DNA of 64,000 nucleotides from Acidaminococcales bacterium (GCA_031290885.1 JAISLQ010000059.1:1514-65513); one strand, 5' to 3'. Positions 3,028-48,814 are shown, numbered from the stretch's first letter. Notes: a model not told the origin generated them from the letters alone. Numbers and translations are program-made.

Positions 3028-3773
3028 TGCGGGACGTAATTATCCCCTGCGCCATTCGCAGCATACATGGTTTCTTGCATCCGGCGCGCGCGGCCGCAGG
3101 GCGGGACGCGTCATTGATTGTCAGCCACGGGTTCCGGGGGTCGCCGGACGGCGGCGGGCGGGCGCTGATACTGGCGCAAGCGGCGTCGGAACATCTTAAC
3201 GTGCTTAGATTCCCTTTCACGCCGCTCAGCGGCCTTTCCCGGCAAATAGAGGAACTCCTGGCGGTCATTGCTTACGCGCGCGGCGCGCTCGGCCCTGATG
3301 TAATATTGCTCGGCCGCAGCATGGGCGGCGCCGCTTCTTTGCTTGCCGCCGCGAAAGCGCGCGATGTGCGCGGCCTGATCCTCTGGTCGGTTCCTTTTGA
3401 CCTCGTCGGCGCGCTTGCTGCCGCACTGGGCAGAGAAAACATGGACAAACTGCGTTTGGGCCAACCGGCCGAACTGGACGACGAATGGGGGAAAGGCGTC
3501 CTGACGCCGGATTTTTATACGGATTTACTGTCTTACGACCTTTTCGGCGTATTCGCCGTTTTGCCGGACATGCCGCTTTTGTTCGTGCACGGCGAAAGGG
3601 ATGAACTCGCGCCGGCCGAAGATGCGCGGGATGCGTTTGCGCTGGCGCGCGGCGGCAAGAGGTTTCACCTTGTCAAGGGCGGCGACCATAGATTCATCGA
3701 GGGCTTCCCTGACTGCTTGGACGCGGTCATGGCCTGGCTTAAAGATAATTACGGGAGGGACGGCATTTGCTAA
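3027..3773 (+). CDS. alpha/beta-fold hydrolase
   Basis: The product has a nucleophile elbow GRSMGG, an acid motif in HGERDELAP and a C-terminal GGDHRF histidine. Its ATG overlaps the upstream stop by 1 nt. Confidence 0.8.
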
Positions 3774-4354
3774 AAAAAGCTTCCATCGCGATTTTTTTCC
3801 TGTCGGCTTTACTTTTCGGCACAGGCTGCGCGGCCGTAAAACCGGCGAACGAAGCGGCGGCAAGCCGCCCGGAACAGACCGGCGGCAACTTGGCGGTATT
3901 CGATACATCCAAAGGTGTTTTTAAAATTGAGCTTTTCACGCAGGAGGCACCGCTGACTGCCGGCAACTTCGCCGCTTTGGCCAAACGCGGGTTTTATGAC
4001 GGGCTTATTTTTCATCGGGTCATAGACGGCTTCATGATCCAAGGCGGCGACCCCAACGGCAACGGGACGGGCGGCCCCGGCTATGCGATCAAAGACGAAT
4101 TCTCGCCCCGCCTGAAACATGATAAACCGGGGACACTGTCCATGGCCAACGCCGGCCCTAATACCGGCGGTTCGCAGTTTTTCATCACCTTGGCCCCCGC
4201 CCCTTGGCTTGACGGCAAACACAGCGTTTTTGGGCAGGTAGTCGAGGGCATGGAAGTGGTGGCGGCGATTGGCAAGGTAAAAACAGGCTCGCAGGACAAA
4301 CCGCTGGAGGCCGTAGTCATTAAAAAAGTTACGATCGAGGAAGGAACGAAGTAA
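3767..4354 (+). CDS. cyclophilin-type peptidyl-prolyl cis-trans isomerase, probable secreted/lipoprotein form
   Basis: Motifs [15 protein letters not shown] and [17 protein letters not shown] are present. The N-terminal hydrophobic signal ends in GTGC. The start is TTG, with GGGAGGG 7 nt upstream. Confidence 0.9.
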
Positions 4355-4357
4355 GTT

Positions 4358-5335
4358 TTGAGCGATGCGGACAACGCACTCAAAGTGCTTTTGCGCGACC
4401 AGGCGGAAGCTCTCGGCATTTTTGGCCATAACGATGAATTTTTGCGGCTGATCGGGCAAGCCTTTTCCTGCCGGATACTCACCCGCGGCGAAGAAATACT
4501 CCTTGCCGGCGACGCCGGGGAAACCGCCAGCTTGAAAAGGTTGTTTGAGGAGCTTCTGTTTCTTTGCCGGCAGGGACATCCCCTGACGGCGCATGACGTG
4601 CGCTACGGCATCCGAATGGTCAAAGAAGGCTGCGCCGACAACCTGCACAAGATGTTTTCCGATACGGTAATCGTTACAAACAGAGGGCGGCACATCAAAG
4701 CGAAAACGCTCGGGCAGTGGATATATCTTGAGGCCATCAAGCGCAATTTTATAACGATCGGCATCGGCCCGGCCGGCACCGGCAAAACCTACCTGGCGGT
4801 CGCCATGGCGCTCGGAGCGCTGAAAAACAAAGACGCGGAACGGATCATCCTGACCAGGCCTGCGGTTGAGGCGGGAGAAAAACTCGGCTTTTTGCCGGGA
4901 GACATGCAGGAGAAAGTAGATCCCTATCTGCGCCCCCTGTACGATGCGCTTTATGAAATATCGGGCAGCGAATTGTTCCAAAAATACATGGGCAAGGGAC
5001 TGATCGAAGTAGCTCCGCTCGCTTATATGCGCGGGCGGACCTTAAACGACTCCTTCATCATATTGGACGAAGCGCAGAACGCCACGCCCGAGCAGATGAA
5101 GATGTTCCTCACCCGCCTGGGGTTCGGTTCCAAGATGGTGGTCGCCGGCGATGCCACTCAGACGGATTTGCCGCAAGGCAAGCAGTCTGGGCTGGCGCAC
5201 GCGGAAAAAGTATTGCAAGGGATAGACGGCATACAAATAGTGCGCTTTTCCAAAAAAGACGTGGTGCGGCACGAGATCGTCGGCATGATGATCAAAGCTT
5301 ACGAAAATTTTGACCAGCGCTGCAAGAATAAATAA
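4358..5335 (+). CDS. phoH: PhoH-like ATPase
   Basis: Walker A GPAGTGKTYLAVA and Walker B ILDEAQN are present, followed by a PhoH-family C-terminus. Its position upstream of ybeY-era is conserved. Confidence 0.9.
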   Translation: MSDADNALKVLLRDQAEALGIFGHNDEFLRLIGQAFSCRILTRGEEILLAGDAGETASLKRLFEELLFLCRQGHPLTAHDVRYGIRMVKEGCADNLHKMFSDTVIVTNRGRHIKAKTLGQWIYLEAIKRNFITIGIGPAGTGKTYLAVAMALGALKNKDAERIILTRPAVEAGEKLGFLPGDMQEKVDPYLRPLYDALYEISGSELFQKYMGKGLIEVAPLAYMRGRTLNDSFIILDEAQNATPEQMKMFLTRLGFGSKMVVAGDATQTDLPQGKQSGLAHAEKVLQGIDGIQIVRFSKKDVVRHEIVGMMIKAYENFDQRCKNK

Positions 5336-5336
5336 A

Positions 5337-5804
5337 ATGCGTATTTTTTTGAGCAGCGACATGGACGCCTGCCCGCCTGGCGGCGCAAAGACGCGTTTGA
5401 TCAAACGGGCGCTCGGCGCGGCCGCCGATTTGGAAAAGCTGAAAAAACGCGTCCAGGTGAGCGTAACTTTGGTGGACGATGCGAAAATGCGTTCAATCAA
5501 CCGGGAATTTCGCGGCGCCGACAAGGTAACCGATGTCATTTCCTTTGCCCTGAACGAAGGGGAAGAAACATGCGCCGCAGGCGGGCCGGAAAAAGACTTG
5601 TTGGGGGAGATTGTCATCTGCCTGCCGCAGGCCGCCCGCCAGGCGGAAGAATATGGGCACAGCTTGGAGCGCGAATTGAGCTATCTGGCGGCGCACGGCT
5701 TTTTGCATCTTTTGGGCTACGATCATATAACCGCGCAAGACAGGAAAGCCATGCGCGCGCAAGAGGAGAACATTATGGCGAAAATCGGGCTTGTAAGGCC
5801 GTGA
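5337..5804 (+). CDS. ybeY: rRNA maturation endoribonuclease YbeY
   Basis: The zinc-binding motif HGFLHLLGYDH is present. ATG 5337 is chosen over the in-frame TTG 5310, which overlaps phoH. Confidence 0.9.
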   Translation: MRIFLSSDMDACPPGGAKTRLIKRALGAAADLEKLKKRVQVSVTLVDDAKMRSINREFRGADKVTDVISFALNEGEETCAAGGPEKDLLGEIVICLPQAARQAEEYGHSLERELSYLAAHGFLHLLGYDHITAQDRKAMRAQEENIMAKIGLVRP

Positions 5805-5821
5805 AAACAGACGGCAAGGAT

Positions 5822-6727
5822 ATGGCGGGGGCAACCTTTAAATCCGGCTTTGTCGCGGTAGTCGGCCGGCCGAACGTTGGCAAGTCCACCTTGGTCAACC
5901 GGTTGGTCGGCGGGAAGGTATCCATTGTTTCCGACAAGCCTCAGACTACGCGCAACCGCATCATGTGCGTCCTGACGCAGGAATCCGCGCAAATGGTTTT
6001 CCTCGACACGCCGGGCATTCACAAGCCGCGGGGCAAATTGGGCGCGTTCATGCTCAAGGCGGCCGAAAGCGCCTTGGCCGAAGTGAACGTTATAATTTTC
6101 GTTGTGGACGCGTCCCGGAAAAAGGGCGGCGGCGACGAATACATCATGGCAAAACTCGCCCAAGCGGACGCGCCGGTAATACTGGCGGCCAACAAAATTG
6201 ACCTTTTGCCCGACAGTCGGGCCATCCTGCCGGCCATAAAAAGCTATGCGGACGATCTGCCGCTCAGCGCGGCCGTTCCGGTTTGCGCCCTGAAACAAAC
6301 AGACTTTGCGCCGCTTTTGACGGAAATAGGCAAACACCTGACTTGCGGGCCGAAATATTTCCCCGACGGCATGGTTACCGACCAGCCGGAACAAATGCTT
6401 GCGGCGGAGATGATCAGGGAGAAAATTCTCCGGGCGACGGCAGGCGAGGTGCCACATTCCATCGCCGTGAAAACAGACGAGATGAAACTGCGCGAAAATC
6501 AGGACATGTACATCAGGGCGACCATTTACGTTGAGCGCGCCTCACAAAAAGGAATAATCATCGGCGCGGGCGGGCGGCTCATAAAAGAGATCGGCCAGGC
6601 GGCGCGCGCCGATATACAGGCGCTGTTGGGCAACAGGGTGTATCTTGACCTGTGGGTAAAAGTGAAAGAAGGTTGGCGCGACCGCGATGGCGCGCTGCGC
6701 GAATTCGGCTTCGGACGGACATGCTGA
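5822..6727 (+). CDS. era: GTPase Era
   Basis: G1 GRPNVGKSTL, G3 DTPG and G4 NKID are present, followed by a C-terminal KH domain. The start is either ATG 5822 or GTG 5801 (a GTGA overlap with the ybeY stop). The 385-aa track ORF is an upstream extension. Confidence 0.9.
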   Translation: MAGATFKSGFVAVVGRPNVGKSTLVNRLVGGKVSIVSDKPQTTRNRIMCVLTQESAQMVFLDTPGIHKPRGKLGAFMLKAAESALAEVNVIIFVVDASRKKGGGDEYIMAKLAQADAPVILAANKIDLLPDSRAILPAIKSYADDLPLSAAVPVCALKQTDFAPLLTEIGKHLTCGPKYFPDGMVTDQPEQMLAAEMIREKILRATAGEVPHSIAVKTDEMKLRENQDMYIRATIYVERASQKGIIIGAGGRLIKEIGQAARADIQALLGNRVYLDLWVKVKEGWRDRDGALREFGFGRTC

Positions 6728-6882
6728 CAAGGCCGGCCCGCCGTTTGTCCCCGGCGGGCGGCGTCCTCCTTTTGCTGGCGCGCGGGGGGCGCAACGGTTA
6801 CATTGGTATCGTTACGGCGGCAAGCCGTGCGGGAAAAATCGTCGGCGATTTACGGGACGGATACAACCGGGAAGAAGGAACT

Positions 6883-7146
6883 ATGCTGAAAAAACCTGAC
6901 GGCAGCTTTGAGTTTGGCGGCACAATGCTGCCGGGCGCCGCAGAGAGAATGTTGGGCGCCGCCCTGCCCGGACAAGGGGCCGCCTTGGGCGGATGCATAT
7001 TCGGCCTGCCGGGGCGGCATCCGCAAACCGGCGGACGAGCCGGCGGCGGCCATGGTTTTGCAGCCGCAAGGTCAAAAGGCTTCCGTGTCGGGCGGGCAAA
7101 ACTGGCAAAGAAACGCGGCGCGGAAAACGGCAATGACGGACAATAA
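6883..7146 (+). CDS. small Gly/Ala-rich basic-tailed hypothetical protein (87 aa)
   Basis: The ATG is preceded by GGAAGAAGGAA at good spacing. The ORF fills the long era-recO spacer and overlaps the recO start by 14 nt. Its low-complexity composition means it could be a chance ORF in GC-rich DNA. Confidence 0.3.
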   Translation: MLKKPDGSFEFGGTMLPGAAERMLGAALPGQGAALGGCIFGLPGRHPQTGGRAGGGHGFAAARSKGFRVGRAKLAKKRGAENGNDGQ

Positions 7147-7867
7147 CCTTTATCAGGACGATATTATCATTCTCAGGGCGAGGGACTGGCAAACTTATGA
7201 CAAGATCGCGGACGCCTTTTCCCGCAGCCACGGCCGCATCTTATTTATCGCCTACGGCGCGCGGCATATAAAGAACCGCAACAGCGCCCTGATGCAAAGC
7301 CTTGCCCACGCCAGCGCGCAATTGGCGCCCGGGCAGAAATTCGACACATTGCGGCAATGCGAACTGCTCGAACCCTTGCTGGCTTCGCCGGAAATCGCGA
7401 AATTCGCCTATGCTTCTTTCGCCGCCGAGCTTACCATAGAGGCGACGCCGGAGCGCGAGCCGCAGGAAGAAATATACCATCTCTTGCGCGGCGCCCTGCA
7501 AGCCATGAACAAGCGCAATCCGCGCCTGGTCATACTGGCTTTTGTCATGAAACTCTTTTCCCTGTGCGGCATATCGCCCAGTTTCGACAACTGCGTGTGC
7601 TGCGGCAAAGCGATCGAGGGCAGCGCATGGGCCAGCGCCGTGCAAGGCGGCTGCGTCTGCGGCGATTGCCGGACGGGGGCGGAAGCCGATTTTTCGCAAA
7701 GCGCCCGCGCGCTGAGCGCCGCCCTGCGCAATGTCGACTTGGCCGCCGCCGGCGGCTTTACGGCCAAGGGGCACGATTTGCGCGCGCTGGAAGATTTTTT
7801 ATATAAATTTGTTCTCGCGCAAATTGAAAAGCCGCTGAAAAGCCTGCAATTTTTAAGCAAGCTGTAG
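7133..7867 (+). CDS. recO: DNA repair protein RecO
   Basis: An N-terminal OB-fold-like region (IILRARDWQTYDK) and a Cys4 zinc motif (CVCCG...CVCGDC) are present. Position after era is conserved. The start is taken at MTDNNLYQDD. Confidence 0.85.
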   Translation: MTDNNLYQDDIIILRARDWQTYDKIADAFSRSHGRILFIAYGARHIKNRNSALMQSLAHASAQLAPGQKFDTLRQCELLEPLLASPEIAKFAYASFAAELTIEATPEREPQEEIYHLLRGALQAMNKRNPRLVILAFVMKLFSLCGISPSFDNCVCCGKAIEGSAWASAVQGGCVCGDCRTGAEADFSQSARALSAALRNVDLAAAGGFTAKGHDLRALEDFLYKFVLAQIEKPLKSLQFLSKL

Positions 7868-32583: not shown

Positions 32584-33675
32584 ATGCCCAGGTTTTCGCC
32601 GAAACGGGAAATGCAGGGCAACGGACGCAGGGCGAGGGATATGGCCGAAAACAAGGCGCGCCCGCAGCCGCCGGATTGTACGCGCAAGCGGGGCCGAGGG
32701 TTTTTGGCCGCTTGTTTTGCCGCCGGTTTATTGTTTTTCGTTTTGGCCGGACAGGGCTGCGCCGCTTTGGACGCCAAAAAGGGAGCGGCGGCGGGCGATC
32801 CGGTGAAAGCGCCGGCAGGCGAAGGCGCCGATGTTTACTTTACCGGCGATATCAGCGGCAAAGGCCTTATGGCGGTTTATAAAAAACTGAACGCCAATAT
32901 CGCGGGCAAAGTCGTGATCAAGCTGCACATGGGCGAGCGCGGCAATACGAATTATCTGTCGCCCGGCCTCTTGCGCGACCTTAGCGGCGCCGTCCGGGGC
33001 ACGCTGGCCGACAGCAATGTGCTGTATGGCGGCGCGCGCGCTGCGACTGCGGGACATTTGGCCTTAGCGAAAGAGCATGGTTTCACTTTCGCGCCGGTAG
33101 ACATCCTGGACGCAGACGGCGACAGCGTTATACCGGTTGCAGGCGGAAACCGGCTCAAAGAGGCCATTGTTGGCTCGCACATTTTGGATTATGACTGGCT
33201 GATCTCGGTCGCCCATTTCAAAGGGCACGGCATGGCCGGATTCGGCGGCACATTTAAGAACATTGCCGTAGGCGTGGCATCGCCGCGGGGCAAAAGGGCG
33301 ATCCACTCCTCGGGCGAGGGGACGTTTTCCTCAACCGGCGAACCTTTCCTCGAAAAAGTGATTGAATACGCCAAGGCGGTGATTGACACCAAAAAAGGCA
33401 AGGCGCTTTACATAAACGTGCTGAACAATCTATCGGTGGACTGTGACTGCGACGCGCGGGCGGCGCATCCTTTGATGCCTGACATCGGCATTCTCGCGTC
33501 CCTTGATCCGGTAGCGCTGGAAAAAGCCAGCCTCGATCTTATTTACGCGCGCCCGGACGCGGAGAAAAAGCATTTGGTAGAGCGCATAGAGTCCAAAAAC
33601 GGCGCCTACCAAATAAAGTACGCGGAAAAAATCGGCCTGGGCAGCGCGAAATACAAACTGATCAAAATAGACTGA
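32584..33675 (+). CDS. DUF362 domain protein with N-terminal signal/lipobox (start uncertain: 32584, 32611 or 32641)
   Basis: A DUF362-typical core is present (VVIKLHMGE..., HFKGHGMAGFGGTFKNIAVG, LSVDCDCD). A hydrophobic signal follows an RGRGF motif and ends in LAGQGC. Confidence 0.8.
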   Translation: MPRFSPKREMQGNGRRARDMAENKARPQPPDCTRKRGRGFLAACFAAGLLFFVLAGQGCAALDAKKGAAAGDPVKAPAGEGADVYFTGDISGKGLMAVYKKLNANIAGKVVIKLHMGERGNTNYLSPGLLRDLSGAVRGTLADSNVLYGGARAATAGHLALAKEHGFTFAPVDILDADGDSVIPVAGGNRLKEAIVGSHILDYDWLISVAHFKGHGMAGFGGTFKNIAVGVASPRGKRAIHSSGEGTFSSTGEPFLEKVIEYAKAVIDTKKGKALYINVLNNLSVDCDCDARAAHPLMPDIGILASLDPVALEKASLDLIYARPDAEKKHLVERIESKNGAYQIKYAEKIGLGSAKYKLIKID

Positions 33676-33717
33676 AACTGGCCGCCCATGTCGGGCGGCA
33701 ACGAAAGAGGCGGGAAA

Positions 33718-34374
33718 ATGACGGCTTATCAGTGCCCTTTTTGCGGCCTGTCGCTGGCCATGAGCCAAGACACGTACGTTAATTATTTTCTCAATTTCCA
33801 TGATGTGACAAAATTTAAAAACAACGCGGCAGTTTGGAAACGGGACAACCTTACCTCTATCAAAGTTGCCTTCATCAAATGCCCGAACTGCAAAAAAGTC
33901 AGCATTTACGCCTTCGGGCACAGCAAAGATCTTGACGGCCTTTTTGTAAACATACACCCGCGCGCCAATTACGCCAAATATCCCGGATACATACCCGAAC
34001 AAATCACCTCCGACTACCAAGAGGCTTGTTCGGTGCTGGAATTCAGCGAAAGGGCGGCGGCCGCTTTAGCCAGGCGATGCCTGCGCGCCATAATAAGGGA
34101 TTACTGGGAAATAAACAAAGACACTTTGTATGAAGAGATCCGCGCCTTGCGCGAATTTGTCGATGCGGAGCTCTGGCAGGCCATCGACAGCATTTCCCAA
34201 CTTGGCGGCATCGGCGAGCGCATGAAACAGGCGGACGGCCTGCTGCTGGACGTTGACCCGCAGGAAGCGCAGAGGCTGATAAAGCTCGTGGAACTTTTGC
34301 TCAAAGAATGGTACGTCGCCCGGCATAACCGCGAAGCTATCTTTGAAGAAATAGTCAACATAGACCTTGAATGA
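33718..34374 (+). CDS. Zn-ribbon + DUF4145 domain protein
   Basis: N-terminal CPFCG...CPNC cysteine pairs are followed by a C-terminal helical region with a DUF4145-like pattern (SDYQEACSVLEFSERAAAALARRCLRAIIRD...). The ATG is preceded by AGAGG. This is the first gene of the AT-richer islet. Confidence 0.65.
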   Translation: MTAYQCPFCGLSLAMSQDTYVNYFLNFHDVTKFKNNAAVWKRDNLTSIKVAFIKCPNCKKVSIYAFGHSKDLDGLFVNIHPRANYAKYPGYIPEQITSDYQEACSVLEFSERAAAALARRCLRAIIRDYWEINKDTLYEEIRALREFVDAELWQAIDSISQLGGIGERMKQADGLLLDVDPQEAQRLIKLVELLLKEWYVARHNREAIFEEIVNIDLE

Positions 34375-34753
34375 TCCAAATACGGCGGTTGTCGTGATTA
34401 TGCACATCTCGAAATTCGCGGCGCAGGGGAACCGCGGGGACAGTACGCCGCACTCTATCGGCAGCTACGCCATCGCGGGGATTTTTCGCACCCTGTGGAC
34501 GCTTGGGCGGTTGAAAGACGAACAAGGCAAACCTACTAACCAACGCGCGCCGTGCGCCAGCAAAAATAACCATGCGGAATCCGGCCCGCCCGCGCTCTTG
34601 TTTGAACTTCACGGCGGTTTTCATTGGGACGGCGTGAACGCGGACATCTTCGCCGAGGATTTGTATTGTTCTTTTCGACCTTTTCATTGGTTTCTGCAAG
34701 AATGTGATAAAACAACGAAGCCACCTCCTGTGATTTGTTATGGTAAACGATAA
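34375..34753 (+). pseudogene. C-terminal remnant of a mobile-element AAA_25/RepA-like (RecA-fold) ATPase
   Basis: The ORF reads TAVVVIMHISKF...GSYAIAGIFRTLWTLGR...KNNHAESGPPALLFELHGGFHWDG. This matches the C-terminal half pattern of plasmid/ICE AAA_25 ATPases. No Walker A-containing N-terminus exists upstream, and the fragment starts exactly where the DUF4145 gene ends. Confidence 0.45.
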
Positions 34754-34769
34754 TAATTGTTACGCATAT

Positions 34770-35873
34770 CTAAATATTGCTCTTGCGCCTATTGCAATCA
34801 TCACAGAGCATTTGACAGTTATCGGCGGTCGTCTTGCCGCCCTTGCTCCATGGTGTTATATGGTCGGCTTGCATTGTTTCAATGGGAAAGGGCTTTTTGC
34901 ATGCCGGACATATGCCCTTTTGCCGCTCGTATGCCGTCCGCGCCATTTTCGGCGAGAAGGCGCGTATGCTCAAAAGGCGTTCCGCCTTCCTGTCCTCGCC
35001 GGATAGCAGATACTCGTAAATGCCGCTGAACTTGGTTATGTCGTCGTCCTGCATAAGCTCGGATATACGCGCTTCAAGCTGTTTTGGGTCGTACTTGCCC
35101 GCGCCGTGCCTGTTATAGAGAATACCCCATTCAAGCCCTTTCATTTCCTTGCGGTAGTTTGGGAACGTCGCTTTAACCCAATTTATGACGGTCTGGAAGT
35201 ATAGCCATAACTCGTTGCAATTCGTGTCGTGTTGATGAGCCGCCATATAATCTTCTATTTCGTCGCCGCCTTTCGCCGCAATCCAGCGTACGGCAGTTTC
35301 CAAATACTCTTGCCGTATCGGTGAGCCGCGCATGTAGTCGCTTGCGATGGCATATGCCGGACAAGCGTTTTTGCTGAAATACTTCTTGCTCTCGGTCAGC
35401 CATTCACCCGTATAGATGGCGTTGCGGCGTTCCTGCGCGGAAAGCTGTTCGCCTACCATATTGACGATTTCAAACCAGTCCAGTTTTTCCTTGTCCGTTC
35501 CTTCGCAGATGTAAACCATAAGGGGATAGGCTAAAATTTGCCCTTGCTCTGTCTTGGTCAGGTTGTCAAAGCCCATATGGTCAATGGAATAGTCACCGTT
35601 GATGTACTGGCAAATGCTGATTGTGCGCTGCTGCCCATCCAGCACTTCAAAATTGCCGTCGTCGGACAGCACCCAATACATAACATTGAGCGGAAAATCT
35701 TTTCGTACCGTGCGGATAACCTCGTCGCGTTGTTTATCCTTATAGATAAACTCGCGCTGAAAGGCAGGTCGAACATTTAGACGGCTGTTGTACCCCACGA
35801 CGCCGTTTTCCGCGCTGTCCTTGTACCCTGCGACAACCTCGCGGATTGGGATTTCATGCAGTTTGATTTTCAT
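34770..35873 (-). CDS. DUF262 (ParB/Srx-fold, DGQQR) - HNH endonuclease fusion protein
   Basis: The N-terminal DUF262 signature is RPAFQREFIY...LDGQQRTISI. The C-terminal zinc-finger HNH is CPACKKPF...ADHITPWSKGGKTTADNCQMLCDDCNRRKSN. Its ATG overlaps the stop of the methyltransferase gene (ATGA at 35870-35873). Confidence 0.85.
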   Translation of the reverse strand: MKIKLHEIPIREVVAGYKDSAENGVVGYNSRLNVRPAFQREFIYKDKQRDEVIRTVRKDFPLNVMYWVLSDDGNFEVLDGQQRTISICQYINGDYSIDHMGFDNLTKTEQGQILAYPLMVYICEGTDKEKLDWFEIVNMVGEQLSAQERRNAIYTGEWLTESKKYFSKNACPAYAIASDYMRGSPIRQEYLETAVRWIAAKGGDEIEDYMAAHQHDTNCNELWLYFQTVINWVKATFPNYRKEMKGLEWGILYNRHGAGKYDPKQLEARISELMQDDDITKFSGIYEYLLSGEDRKAERLLSIRAFSPKMARTAYERQKGICPACKKPFPIETMQADHITPWSKGGKTTADNCQMLCDDCNRRKSNI

Positions 35874-37111
35874 TGTGTAGACAAACTCCTTCTTCGTATT
35901 GTTATACGAGCATATGTTGTTCTCCCGTTGATTTTGCCGTCGTTGCTCTTAATCATTCCGGGTATTGATGTTGCGAATGAGCAGTCTCGCATACTTGCGT
36001 TCTCCGTTTGCTGCCGGGTGTCTATGCCCGTCGAATGAGTATGCGGAAGTACGGCTGTACGGCTGTACGGCTGTACGGCTGTGCCGTCCTCTGCTTTAAC
36101 ATTTTGTGAATAATCTGTGAACGAGTAGGTCAAGTCTTTGCCGTCATTGCCTTTTCGGAACGCGACAATCTCAAATTGTTCTGGATTATATTTATCCAGA
36201 AACGTAATCGGCACACCCATTACGCCGTAATAGTCGCATGGTATATCGGCGGTTTTATCCACATTTATTGCGTCGTAATTGTCGTATTTAGGGTAAACGT
36301 CGGGCGAATACGTTCTAAACAAAGCCATGTCCTCATGGCGTTTTTCTATGTCAAGATTGGTAAACCAGCAAATGTTACCCATGCGGCGCCATTTTTGCCC
36401 GTTTTCATCTATCTTGAAATCAGTCGCCTTTGCCTCGTAGTTGTCGGGAACGGCAAACCAATAATGACCGCTATTATAACCCAACCACAATCTGTTGGTA
36501 GCTATTAATGGAAATATTTCCTTGTAAGTAACTGCGTTCATGTTGCCTATGATGGCAAACGACTTTTCACATTCCATAAGTTGCGCTATATACTCACGAA
36601 AAAGTGAAAAGGGCGGGTTGGTGACGACTATATCCGCTTGCTTCAAAAGTTCAATGCATTCCGCGCTCCGAAAATCGCCGTCGCCTTGTAAAAGGGTTAG
36701 CACGTTCTTTTTGTTTCTCAACAGATATTCTACGTCGGCAAGCCCCACGCGCCCGTCGCCGGTTTCGTCTGTAACTTCGGCAATTTCGATTTTATATGGC
36801 TTTTTTTTGCCCGGTTCTGCTCCTGCGGCCATTTCCGCCCCGAATAGCGTCAACTGGGTATAAACAATCGGGGACGTTGCATAACACGTTGCTATGAGTT
36901 TTTTTAACCCCATCGAATTGAAGTTGATGGCGAAGTATTTGAAAAAGTTGCTTTCATAGGGGTCGTCGCAATTACATAATACGACTTTTCCTCTGAAATG
37001 CCCCTTGTAGTGTTTTAGTTCGCTCTCGATAAGCGAAAGTTGGGTATAAAATTCATCTTGCTTGTTTCTTGACGAATCATGCAGATTGCTGTTGCCCGCC
37101 TTTGCTGCCAT
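35870..37111 (-). CDS. EcoRI-methylase-family N6-adenine DNA methyltransferase
   Basis: It has the family-typical N-terminus (NKQDEFYTQL...VVLCNCDDPYESNFFKYF), the catalytic motif IVVTNPPFSLFREY, and the C-terminal GVPITFLDKYNPEQFEIV ... TYARITIRRR. It contains the 8-bp x4 repeat at 36049-36080. Confidence 0.85.
   Translation of the reverse strand: MAAKAGNSNLHDSSRNKQDEFYTQLSLIESELKHYKGHFRGKVVLCNCDDPYESNFFKYFAINFNSMGLKKLIATCYATSPIVYTQLTLFGAEMAAGAEPGKKKPYKIEIAEVTDETGDGRVGLADVEYLLRNKKNVLTLLQGDGDFRSAECIELLKQADIVVTNPPFSLFREYIAQLMECEKSFAIIGNMNAVTYKEIFPLIATNRLWLGYNSGHYWFAVPDNYEAKATDFKIDENGQKWRRMGNICWFTNLDIEKRHEDMALFRTYSPDVYPKYDNYDAINVDKTADIPCDYYGVMGVPITFLDKYNPEQFEIVAFRKGNDGKDLTYSFTDYSQNVKAEDGTAVQPYSRTAVLPHTHSTGIDTRQQTENASMRDCSFATSIPGMIKSNDGKINGRTTYARITIRRRSLSTQ
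36049..36080. repeat. perfect tandem repeat (GTACGGCT)x4 inside the methyltransferase gene
   Basis: Read directly from the sequence: four contiguous 8-nt units lie at 36049-36080 on the plus strand (AGCCGTAC x4 on the coding strand), encoding TAVQPYSRTAVLP. The unit length is not a multiple of 3. Confidence 0.95.
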
Positions 37112-37114
37112 TGG

Positions 37115-37321
37115 TTACTTGCCCCCGTGCATATTGGATTCTTTAGATTCACGCGCCGCCTTTGTCCTGCCATCAAGCGGCTTTTGTGTGCCCTTGGGAA
37201 TCACCCACATATCTGCCAACTTAGTTGCGCCGTTCACCTGCCCGTTATCGCATAGCGCTTGGACACGTCGCACTGTTATGCCCCATTCATCGGCAGCCTG
37301 TTTTGTGGTTATCCAATCCAT
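37115..37321 (-). CDS. small helix-turn-helix DNA-binding protein (excisionase/MerR-like HTH, 68 aa)
   Basis: MDWITTKQAADEWGITVRRVQALCDNGQV is a typical HTH_17-like motif. SD GAGGTG lies 5 nt upstream of ATG 37321. The stop is 3 nt before the methyltransferase ATG. Confidence 0.7.
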   Translation of the reverse strand: MDWITTKQAADEWGITVRRVQALCDNGQVNGATKLADMWVIPKGTQKPLDGRTKAARESKESNMHGGK

Positions 37322-37360
37322 CGTTTCACCTCGCGCCCCGACCATCCGACAACTCAATTC

Positions 37361-37395
37361 ATTATACAGCGTCACAACGAATAAAGAAAGGGCTT
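37361..37395 (-). promoter_or_regulatory. candidate extended -10 promoter for the HTH-MTase-nuclease operon
   Basis: The minus strand reads TGTATAAT (an extended -10, with TATAAT at plus 37361-37366). The -35 is weak (TTTCTT) at 17-nt spacing. The element lies about 35 nt upstream of the HTH start. Confidence 0.35.
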
Positions 37396-37477
37396 TTTTC
37401 TCCACGCCAAACTATGTCCTTGACAAACGCTCCCGAACGAACATGCAATGACCGGCGCCTGCCACGTCAGGGATTTT

Positions 37478-37537
37478 CCCGGACAAAGAGGGCGGGGCCC
37501 CCGCGATTTCGCGGGGGCCCCGCCCTCTTTGTCCGGG
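37478..37537. repeat. 60-bp perfect GC-rich palindrome (29-bp arms, 2-nt centre)
   Basis: CCCGGACAAAGAGGGCGGGGCCCCCGCGA-TT-TCGCGGGGGCCCCGCCCTCTTTGTCCGGG, read directly from the sequence. No U-tract follows on either side. Confidence 0.95.
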
Positions 37538-37785
37538 AACGGCCCGGGGGCATGGCCGAACCTGCCGCCCCAAAACCGCCGCTGGCACAGGAGCGTCTCT
37601 TTCTCCCCGTGCATAATTGTAGCACGGGCGGGATGCTTGTCGGTTTTCACGGCAGGTTCGGCAGGCAACACAATATAAAGAATGTTTCTTGGCATAAATA
37701 GAAAAAACCAGCCGACAAGCTGTTTGCGTATTTCGTGCGCGCCGGACAGTCGCTCAAATGGAGGTGGGGTTTTTCCGAGCCGCGT

Positions 37786-38304
37786 TCAGTCGTCCCGCCT
37801 AAGTTTTTCCAGCCTGGTTACGACCTCCGAAGCAAGGCGCTCGGACACTTCCCGGCGACCGGCCAAAAGCCCGCCGCCGCCCGCTTCGGCGATCGCGCGG
37901 CCTGTTTTCAGGCAATCGCCAATAAATTCGCCGACGGCCAGGCGGTAAGCGCCCATGCCCAACACGGCCATTTGTTCGCTTTGGTCGCCGGTAACGACAA
38001 AGACGTCGTTCTTTTCCCGCAAAAGGCGGTAAGCAGCCTTTTCTATATATGAATCGGCAGTTTCGCCTTCGGCGGTGAACACCACGTCAACCCCTGGCCG
38101 GTGTTCCACCACGGCATCACCTTTCGCCGCGTAGGCATCGAACACGACGGCCGGAAGGCAGCCCTTAAAAGAGGCGTAATCAGCTATAGTGTCCGCCAGC
38201 CGGTCGCGGGCGTGCGACAGATCCGCCACCCGCAGCTTGTCAAAGGCCGGCCAGTTATGAAGCACATTGTAACCGTCCACAAGCAGCCAGGCGCCTTTGT
38301 TCAT
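37786..38304 (-). CDS. NYN-domain ribonuclease YacP/Rae1 family
   Basis: LLVDGYNV, VVFDAY and the acidic motif TADSYIE are present. Position after rlmB is conserved, with a 4-nt overlap. Confidence 0.85.
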   Translation of the reverse strand: MNKGAWLLVDGYNVLHNWPAFDKLRVADLSHARDRLADTIADYASFKGCLPAVVFDAYAAKGDAVVEHRPGVDVVFTAEGETADSYIEKAAYRLLREKNDVFVVTGDQSEQMAVLGMGAYRLAVGEFIGDCLKTGRAIAEAGGGGLLAGRREVSERLASEVVTRLEKLRRDD

Positions 38305-47326: not shown

Positions 47327-48814
47327 TCAAATAAAATCTTTGCCAACATATACGATCGCTTCCACCGACGATTCGCTGTTGCGGCTAAGTTTTAGCGAGT
47401 AGCGGAAAGGCAGGCCGGCCAGTTTGCTTAAGACCCAGCCGTCATAAGTGTTCGAGATGATGGAACTGCTGTTTTGTATGTTGCCGTCAGATATTTCAGT
47501 TACAGTTACGCCGTTGCCCTGGAGCAGGGACTGCATTTTTGCGGCGCCGCCGGGGTCGCCGCTGCAATTGACTACCGCCGCGCGCAATTGCCGCGGCAGC
47601 CTTTCCGCCGGCGCGCTTGTTTTAGGCTTGCCGCCGGCTGCCGGGGGAGCGGATCGGTCGCCGCCCGGCGTTGGCTTCTTGCCCTCGTTTTCGCCTAGTT
47701 TTTCTTTTTTCGCGGGCGGTTCTTTGCCGCCTGGTTTTTCTTTTTCCGGCGCTGGTTCTTTGCCATCGGCCTTTTCCGCAACCGCTTCGCCATCGGCCTG
47801 CTCTTTCGCGGCCTCGCTTTCCGGCAGGTCATCGCCGTAATATACGACATTCTCCGGCAACGAATCCTTATAGAGAGCGGCAAGCTGGCGCGCGGAATTC
47901 ATAAAGTCGCTTTCGGCGTCCATTCCAAGCATTTTCGTCACTTCCGTGCGAATAGCCATGACGTCAGGCAACAGATAACTTATGCCGTCAATGTGTACCG
48001 GCTCGCCCGGCGCGGCAAAGGCGTTAAGGCCGGTGCGGCTGCTTTTTTGCAGCGTCCGGCCGATTTGCAGCATATCGGCAAAGCCCATATTGGTACTGAC
48101 GGAACTTAAAGCGATCGCCGCCAAGTCGGGCAGCCGGATCCACATAGCCGGATCGGACATTTTCGCGTAAAAGGCGGCGATAAAATCTTGCTGTCTTCTT
48201 ACCCTGCCAACGTCCCCTTCCTCGTCACGGTAACGGACAAATTGCATGGCCTTTTTGCCGTCAAGCACCTGTTCGCCCGGTTCCAGGTCGATAACAAGCC
48301 CGAACGGCCCGTCCCAGGGATCTTCGTAATACATCCTTTCGCGCACGTTGAGCGGGACGCCGCCAACGGCGTCCACAATCCGCTCAAAGCCGGAAAAATC
48401 CACCTGCACGTAATATTTTATGCTTATTCCCAGGAACCCTTCCAGCGCCGCGACGACATTTTCCGTTCCGCCGTAGTTGTAGGCATGATTTATCTTGTCC
48501 CAGCGCCCGCCGTTTATATACACCCTCATGTCGCGCGGCACGGAAACTAAGTTGATCTTCTCCGCCTTAGGATCGTACATGGCGACAATGATCGCGTCCG
48601 CCCGGCCTGCATCGTCATTGCGCTTGTCCACGCCCAAAATGACGACGTTCGTCTGGCCGGCCGCGACAAATTTATCTTCTTTTTCCGGTTTTTTTATATC
48701 CGGCCGCACCGTGCGCGGCGAGCGGTAAAAAACCTGAAAAGCGCCGTAAGCCGCAATGGAAGCGGTAACAACAATCGTAAAAAAAATCACCGCGAATTTT
48801 TTAATCAAATACAT
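47327..48814 (-). CDS. LytR-CpsA-Psr (LCP) family protein with Lys/Glu/Pro-rich linker and C-terminal LytR_C-like domain
   Basis: An N-terminal transmembrane anchor is followed by an LCP core (VVILGVDKR...GRADAIIVAMYDP...LVSVPRDMRV). The start is ATG 48814, with TTG 48841 as an alternative. Confidence 0.85.
   Translation of the reverse strand: MYLIKKFAVIFFTIVVTASIAAYGAFQVFYRSPRTVRPDIKKPEKEDKFVAAGQTNVVILGVDKRNDDAGRADAIIVAMYDPKAEKINLVSVPRDMRVYINGGRWDKINHAYNYGGTENVVAALEGFLGISIKYYVQVDFSGFERIVDAVGGVPLNVRERMYYEDPWDGPFGLVIDLEPGEQVLDGKKAMQFVRYRDEEGDVGRVRRQQDFIAAFYAKMSDPAMWIRLPDLAAIALSSVSTNMGFADMLQIGRTLQKSSRTGLNAFAAPGEPVHIDGISYLLPDVMAIRTEVTKMLGMDAESDFMNSARQLAALYKDSLPENVVYYGDDLPESEAAKEQADGEAVAEKADGKEPAPEKEKPGGKEPPAKKEKLGENEGKKPTPGGDRSAPPAAGGKPKTSAPAERLPRQLRAAVVNCSGDPGGAAKMQSLLQGNGVTVTEISDGNIQNSSSIISNTYDGWVLSKLAGLPFRYSLKLSRNSESSVEAIVYVGKDFI

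Follow-up and report, generated by a model that had tools for sequence, protein, structure and literature searches.

An octanucleotide repeat as a probable selector among three C-terminal tails of an EcoRI-family methyltransferase

What happens to a restriction-modification methyltransferase (MTase) when a repeat inside its gene gains or loses a unit? This question is raised by a gene in a 64-kb stretch of DNA from an Acidaminococcales bacterium (the whole stretch is called the window below), in which an 8-nt unit stands four times in tandem. A preliminary description of this DNA regarded the repeat as a possible phase switch that would turn off the MTase and, together with it, the nuclease encoded downstream. 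We found that the DNA behind the repeat encodes a conserved end of the MTase in each of the three frames, and we consider it likely that the repeat works as a three-phase switch of C-terminal tails.

Three-frame coding behind the octanucleotide repeat

Inspection of the sequence and Tandem Repeats Finder both confirmed the repeat. GTACGGCT, read on the + strand, is present in four perfect copies at 36049-36080, and the program reported an array at 36049-36082 with a period of 8, 4.2 copies, 100% matches and a score of 68. No other perfect tandem array in the window has a unit of 4-12 nt in three or more copies. The top-scoring tandem repeat of the window is another one, a 36-bp unit repeated about twice at 47692-47776 (score 109), which is unrelated to the array in the MTase gene. 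The array starts at codon 344 of the 413 codons of the MTase ORF, and its unit is not a multiple of three, which is a feature of phasevarions. The ORF matches PF13651 (EcoRI_methylase) with an E-value of 3.6e-147 over profile positions 1-344 of 345; the present, long isoform scores 490.6 bits against a gathering cutoff of 26.4. It is also matched by the PADLOC model MTase_II (E 8.4e-130), and the catalytic N165-P166-P167-F168 is invariant in the family alignment. No solved homologue of the MTase was found by sequence, and there was no close fold match. The features of the locus and the repeats of related loci are listed in Table 1.

Table 1. Features of the MTase-nuclease locus in the window and repeats at the homologous site in relatives
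Feature	Location	Strand	Description
Small helix-turn-helix/excisionase-like ORF, 96 aa	37115..37405	(-)	Weak match, below Pfam cutoff; ends 3 nt before MTase start
MTase ORF, present phase (4 units, long tail), 413 aa	35870..37111	(-)	PF13651 EcoRI-family, predicted N6-adenine MTase, NPPF motif
Conserved MTase body	36081..37111	(-)	Upstream of the repeat and common to all three isoforms; alone matches profile 1-307; invariant columns
Octanucleotide repeat, (AGCCGTAC)x4 on coding strand	36049..36080	(-)	Proposed slipped-strand frame selector
Short tail frame, ..QPYFRILIRRA	36022..36051	(-)	2, 5 or 8 units; TAG 36022-36024; YFRILIR motif 36051-36031
Medium tail frame, ..RTSAYSFDGHRHPAANGERKYARLLIRNINTRND	35949..36053	(-)	0, 3 or 6 units; TAA 35949-35951; YARLLIR motif 35993-35973
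Long tail frame, ..VLPHTHS...SFATSIPGMIKSNDGKINGRTTYARITIRRRSLSTQ	35870..36052	(-)	1, 4 or 7 units (present state); TGA 35870-35872; YARITIR motif 35914-35894
AAGGAG, Shine-Dalgarno-like	35886..35891	(-)	12 nt before nuclease ATG; terminal R-R codons of the long tail; putative function
ATGA overlap of MTase stop and nuclease start	35870..35873	(-)	TGA 35870-35872, ATG 35871-35873; long-tail phase only
Partner nuclease, 367 aa	34770..35873	(-)	N-terminal DUF262/GmrSD_N (DGQQR) and C-terminal HNH; Pfam, PADLOC
(AG)9	L001, Eubacterium, metagenome-assembled genome		Homologous repeat site
(AG)16	L002, Selenomonadaceae		Homologous repeat site
(GA)6	L020, Abditibacteriota		Homologous repeat site
(GA)8	L076, Patescibacteria		Homologous repeat site
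G9	L050, L074, Clostridia and Porphyromonadaceae		Homologous repeat site
G11	L017		Homologous repeat site
(CAGA)6	L027, uncultured Clostridia assembly, 5000-5023		Homologous repeat site
(CAGA)27	L028, Christensenella assembly, 5000-5107		Homologous repeat site
(AGAC)12	L060		Homologous repeat site
(CAGAG)6	L082		Homologous repeat site
(AGAAC)3	L024		Homologous repeat site

The gene was rebuilt in silico with 0 to 8 units and the resulting frames were translated. As had been expected, one unit more or less shifts the frame, but this shift does not truncate the MTase in the way that the preliminary description had supposed. Only three outcomes were obtained, which cycle with unit number, and each frame reaches its own stop. 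Genes with 1, 4 or 7 units encode a long tail (...SFATSIPGMIKSNDGKINGRTTYARITIRRRSLSTQ), whose stop overlaps the ATG of the nuclease gene; those with 2, 5 or 8 units encode a short tail (...QPYFRILIRRA), whose stop lies 152 nt upstream of this ATG; and those with 0, 3 or 6 units encode a medium tail (...HPAANGERKYARLLIRNINTRND), with a stop 79 nt upstream. Loss of one unit from the present four thus ends in the medium tail and gain of one in the short tail, and neither is a bare truncation. After the repeat, the three tails have 9, 33 and 59 residues. Every tail ends with Y/F-x-R-h-x-I-R (YFRILIRR in the short, KYARLLIR in the medium and TYARITIRR in the long tail), and the Y, R and I of this motif are invariant or nearly so in family alignments. 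All three isoforms match the Pfam profile up to position 344 of 345, at 493.1, 491.9 and 490.6 bits, whereas the match ends at position 307 (480.5 bits) if the protein is cut off at the repeat. Hence three different C-termini are produced from three frames while the body is retained, which is a feature of C-terminal phase variation. Both alternative frames provide complete conserved tails, and the OFF state of a classical phasevarion is absent from this gene.

The motif precedes the first stop in all three frames of the window. Chance alternative ORFs were ruled out as its source, because, when this stretch was shuffled 20,000 times with dinucleotides preserved, not one shuffle had even two motif-bearing frames. 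The array encodes the peptide ...GTAVQPYSRTAVLP..., which had been described as an odd insert. The peptide is as described; it is, however, not a foreign insertion but T-V-Q-P-Y, the stretch with which the short tail begins, multiplied by the repeat. In other words, the 8-mer arose by amplification within the conserved codons for V-Q-P-Y at the opening of that tail.

We propose that the repeat would serve as the frame selector of a two-gene module composed of a PF13651 MTase and a DUF262-HNH nuclease. The DNA behind the repeat would be read in all three frames, each of which would end in its own copy of an essential last beta-strand, and the remainder of the copy number divided by three would determine the tail (1, long; 2, short; 0, medium). 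When slipped-strand mispairing adds or removes one 8-nt unit, a hypervariable C-terminal cassette would then be swapped. No phase would remove the MTase, and protection would never be lost; such a swap would meet the need of a system with a separately encoded nuclease to survive frame changes. A classical ON/OFF phasevarion, in which 3 or 5 units truncate or inactivate the MTase and translation of the nuclease is lost too, would equally be expected to have a non-triplet unit within a restriction-modification MTase gene, and a frame change does move the stop away from the ATGA overlap. This outcome is established for Type III mod genes (PMC1976455, PMC7383803). However, both alternative frames of the window gene restore the full Pfam match through conserved tails. 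Moreover, from the biology of Type II restriction-modification, switching off the MTase beside an independent nuclease should be self-destructive. We therefore regard an ON/OFF switch at this locus as very improbable.

Conserved three-frame tails and changing repeat length in relatives

The best 120 homologues of the MTase are 65-84% identical to it and carry, at the site of the array, runs such as VERERERER, which correspond to an (AG)n tract. When the DNA of loci from genomes and assemblies was compared, the alternative C-termini that follow the tract in these homologues turned out to be one DNA read in different frames. The tracts range over G9-11, (AG)6-16 and (CAGA)6-27, with units of 1, 2, 4 or 5 nt, and none of the units is a multiple of three. 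In a uniform scan, motif-bearing tails were present in all three frames in 15 of 16 repeat-bearing loci, the sixteenth having two, and more than one motif-bearing frame was found in none of 55 repeat-free loci. Three-frame coding is thus conserved among relatives and strictly associated with repeats at this site. The presence of three motif-bearing frames in 15 of the 16 relatives again argues against the ON/OFF switch.

In the clade with tetranucleotide repeats (L027, L028), the alternative tails are whole duplicated C-terminal modules that begin with GVPITFLDKYNPEQFEI and have different variable loops, and these loops resemble alleles fixed in repeat-free relatives. This bears on the explanation that repeats in the linker are a mutational liability and that the backup tails, all equivalent in function, only rescue the MTase from frameshifts. 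Preservation of the same terminal motif in every frame is what a fail-safe device would require, and loss of the MTase beside the nuclease would presumably be lethal. On the other hand, selection against a liability would break the tracts, yet five further unit types recur at the site and the tracts reach 27 units. Equivalent isoforms are also difficult to reconcile with alternative tails that resemble distinct allele classes fixed in repeat-free relatives, or with tetranucleotide-clade tails that are whole modules differing in their variable loops. Therefore, we think it very unlikely that the tails are merely fail-safes. Some homologues have C-terminal modules in tandem in one frame, four in P0135 (688 aa) and two in P0155 (488 aa), and in P0121 (587 aa) two MTase bodies are fused. 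These may be other ways to carry several cassettes.

The length of the repeat changes in relatives. One mobile element, with Rep and FtsK genes upstream, was found in eight contigs from eight independent assemblies (L083-86 and L087-90). Their flanks (1,040 nt left and 1,200 nt right of the tract) show 99.8-100% identity, and of the seven copies compared with L083, four match it there without a single difference. Four of the contigs (L083-86) have (AG)15 and a short tail, and the other four (L087-90) have (AG)11 and a medium tail. Because of this difference in tract length, copies of the same mobile element use different tails. A ninth, slightly diverged copy (L091) has (AG)16 and a long tail. 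Assembly error was ruled out as the source of the (AG)n differences, since each length was found in four independent assemblies. Furthermore, a cluster of 24 proteins with bodies at least 96% identical contains about 10 tract lengths, by our count, and all three tail types, and further clusters of at least 96% body identity show a like mix of tract lengths and tails. We also observed that contigs L042, L046, L049 and L059 have their 3' ends inside the (GACA/AGAC)n tract of the MTase gene, as assembly breaks. Such breaks are expected of an unstable or heterogeneous repeat. The preliminary view that this is a phase-switch site therefore stands insofar as many relatives have frame-shifting repeats here, with lengths that vary in nearly identical DNA; the OFF state that went with it does not.

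Three open frames would also permit the three tails to coexist at an unchanged DNA sequence, through transcriptional slippage or programmed ribosomal frameshifting. However, differences in DNA length are directly seen in relatives, and no stimulatory RNA structure was found (z = -1.0, not significant, for the stretch of mRNA from the early stops to the start of the nuclease gene). Neither the 8-nt unit nor (AG)n is known as a slippery site. Isoforms made at the level of RNA or the ribosome are thus an extremely improbable explanation.

The lineage of the window lacks the (AG)n tract; only GCAGAGGAC is left as a remnant, and four copies of CAGCCGTA occupy the place of the lost tract. The sequence thus suggests that the repeat was replaced, not merely lost, in this lineage. 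The closest relative (L081, about 78-80% identical) has only (AG)3 and does not have the 8-mer, and it keeps all three tails. Judging from its sequence, this is a lineage with a decayed, apparently 'locked' selector. The window and L082 differ in the triple-coded stretch by an indel whose length, 21 nt, is divisible by three. Exact scans of metagenome and viral contigs for two units plus conserved flank found no other carrier of the 8-mer, and no 8-mer with another copy number was found in the protein search, where the best relative (78% identical) lacks it.

These results have to be weighed against the main rival of the tail-switch model, a fixed duplication, in which the array arose by an in-frame expansion of 24 nt (1 to 4 units), is now invariant, and the tails are a relic of an (AG)n ancestor. 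The failure to find copy-number variants of the 8-mer in the protein search and in metagenome and viral contigs is consistent with this rival. So are the small number of copies, just four, and the retention of tails in the nearest relative despite its decayed (AG)3 tract. Slippage is also expected to be rarer for four copies of an 8-nt unit than for long mono-, di- or tetranucleotide tracts. Against a fixed duplication, the four units are perfect and none of the three tails has lost its motif or stop; stepwise growth from 1 to 4 units passes through both other frames; and the new array stands exactly where (AG)n was lost, which looks like the replacement of a selected mutable tract. Perfect units, intact tails and a growth path that traverses both other frames each point to recent or ongoing slippage, and from them we infer that the 8-mer itself still slips. 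Overall, a fixed duplication is unlikely, and a three-phase tail switch remains our preferred reading of the window gene.

The tails, the nuclease partner and the surroundings of the locus

How would the tails affect the enzyme? An AlphaFold model of a relative with a short tail (P0013; alignment of 141 sequences) had a mean pLDDT of 85.7. The residues encoded by the repeat form a low-confidence loop (about 330-350), and the terminal motif forms a confident beta-strand (354-359) that follows strand 310-315. This model suggests that the repeat encodes a tolerant linker and that the tail contributes a structural strand plus a variable insert. The model of the long isoform of the window, made with 55 close homologues, is too poor for conclusions on the tail (pLDDT 56.7, below 50 in the C-terminal half). 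The segment between the body and the last strand would grow from about 0 to about 20 and about 45 residues among the three phases, with possible effects on recognition, on activity or on contact with the nuclease.

Swapping of the tail follows neither the conserved body nor the conserved nuclease. Between the window and a Burkholderiales locus (L003), identity is 88% in the nuclease, 86% in the body and 14% in the tail, and over 56 loci similarity of the nuclease does not correlate with that of the tail (Spearman rho 0.02). The L003 locus (3713-7436) has two tandem MTase copies, with a helix-turn-helix gene before each and the nuclease downstream; this nuclease is about 87-88% identical to that of the window. 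Independent swapping fits, rather than proves, a tail that may act as a recognition or interaction cassette, by analogy with the variable Type III mod alleles beside a conserved res. The lack of covariation between nuclease and tail sequences leaves room for a nuclease that may borrow recognition from the MTase.

The nuclease matches GmrSD_N (E 1.5e-16) and HNH (E 4.7e-14). The PADLOC model REase_II (PDLC03418) matches it over its full length with E 2.1e-138, as a model name and not a functional test, whereas the match to mREase_IV is weak (E 3.7e-06). A homologue of the nuclease is encoded directly downstream of the MTase in at least 70 of 80 loci, which come from very diverse phyla. The pair is also found on plasmids and phages, with annotations that go no further than EcoRI-family methyltransferase and DUF262 protein. 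Adjacent and separately encoded MTase and endonuclease genes, which are matched by MTase_II and REase_II, respectively, represent the layout of Type II restriction-modification. The hallmark of GmrSD-type Type IV enzymes, which act alone on modified DNA with no cognate MTase, does not apply, as an MTase gene adjoins the nuclease in at least those 70 loci.

The ATGA overlap of the two genes, noted in the preliminary description, was confirmed (Table 1). The terminal codons of the last tail, which are purine-rich and resemble a Shine-Dalgarno sequence, precede or overlap the nuclease ATG in every locus. It had been proposed that a frame change abolishes the coupling and shuts off both activities together. 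The first part is correct in that the stop moves 79 or 152 nt upstream and the overlap is lost, and the second part is not supported. Since the MTase frame runs up to the nuclease ATG in the long-tail phase and in no other, translation of the nuclease may differ between phases. The intervening mRNA is not significantly structured (z = -1.0) and so gives no extra support for nuclease translation that depends on coupling. The number of promoter and terminator sites predicted in 34300-37900 was not above that in shuffled sequence.

A small helix-turn-helix gene stands upstream of the MTase gene in relatives, too (L081, L082), and the ORF in the window may encode a restriction-modification controller protein. 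An ORF of 228 aa (33688-34374, + strand) matches the candidate defence protein PD-T7-4 of PADLOC (E 6.1e-14) and phrog_1305. Because this PD-T7-4-like ORF adjoins the restriction-modification pair, the insert looks like a small defence island. The region around 33500-37250, which includes the MTase and nuclease pair, has a GC content of 0.44-0.50 compared with about 0.60 in the flanks, and this low-GC island follows yacP in a gene row of cysS, mini-RNase III, thyX, a SpoU-methylase and yacP. This suggests that the island was acquired horizontally.

Relation to known phase-variable systems and significance

C-terminal phase variation is a recognised repeat-driven class, according to passages on Helicobacter canadensis (Snyder et al. 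2010, PMC2823697) and Neisseria gonorrhoeae (Zelewska et al. 2016, PMC5320596). As in these passages, a repeat at the 3' end of the window gene swaps the C-terminus among three frames and the body is kept. A conserved motif common to the alternative ends is not mentioned in the passages, whereas the tails of the window gene are homologous and share an invariant terminal strand. Unlike the cases in these passages, the layout found in the window is conserved across phyla, occurs with six repeat units and belongs to a nuclease-coupled restriction-modification MTase. The window locus fits C-terminal phase variation and lacks the OFF state that defines a phasevarion.

Phase-variable Type III mod and Type I hsdM/hsdS genes are repeat-driven ON/OFF switches (PMC1976455, PMC7383803). 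They resemble the present locus in having a non-triplet repeat in a restriction-modification MTase gene, with tract lengths that vary between strains, and in placing a hypervariable segment beside a conserved nuclease partner; in phasevarions this segment is for recognition, and by analogy the hypervariable tail may have such a role. Unlike these switches, no phase of the window gene is without a complete MTase, and the families (PF13651 and DUF262-HNH) differ. Type I HsdS repeats (PMC7383803), which alter the identity of the enzyme and not its presence, would be the closest functional parallel, provided that the tails affect recognition. In HsdS, however, the S subunits are truncated or altered, whereas the window gene has three pre-encoded overlapping frames, and a change of specificity is hypothetical. 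The nuclease resembles GmrSD, BrxU and SspE (PMC12707154) in having a DUF262 domain with DGQQR followed by an HNH-type/His-Me finger nuclease. Those enzymes depend on modified DNA and are standalone or part of BREX or phosphorothioate systems, whereas the window nuclease has a predicted adenine MTase as its strict partner. In the full-text literature covered, which is only part of the whole and in which absence is not proof, no description of three-frame conserved tails in PF13651 MTases was found. Likewise, the part of the literature covered contained no system that combines overlapping frames that keep the motif, conservation across phyla with replacement of the repeat unit, and a separate nuclease.

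ON/OFF logic, by which phase-variable MTases are understood, suits a nuclease that depends on its MTase; where the two genes are separate, it should be lethal. Here, about 180 nt are read in three frames, each of which supplies the essential last strand, so that a mutable repeat changes the enzyme without deleting it. With six unit types in all, the same layout is found again in Firmicutes, Bacteroidota, Patescibacteria, Abditibacteriota and others, and on plasmids, phages and integrative elements. This recurrence suggests strong and repeated selection. As gene callers report the frame in which an assembly happens to be, such MTase genes give the impression of unrelated C-terminal variants or of frameshifted pseudogenes. 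A bolder reading, possible but in our view doubtful, is that these loci form a widespread 'frame-multiplexed' class of restriction-modification systems, in which the repeat would rotate the MTase among three recognition cassettes and the conserved nuclease would find its targets via the MTase, like Type III Res via Mod, giving a joint three-way specificity switch with the genome always protected. If it is true that the tails set specificity or the dosage of the nuclease, gut and rumen bacteria would have in this module a compact source of epigenetic and defence heterogeneity. The window locus and its relatives are a clean natural example of functional triple-frame coding.
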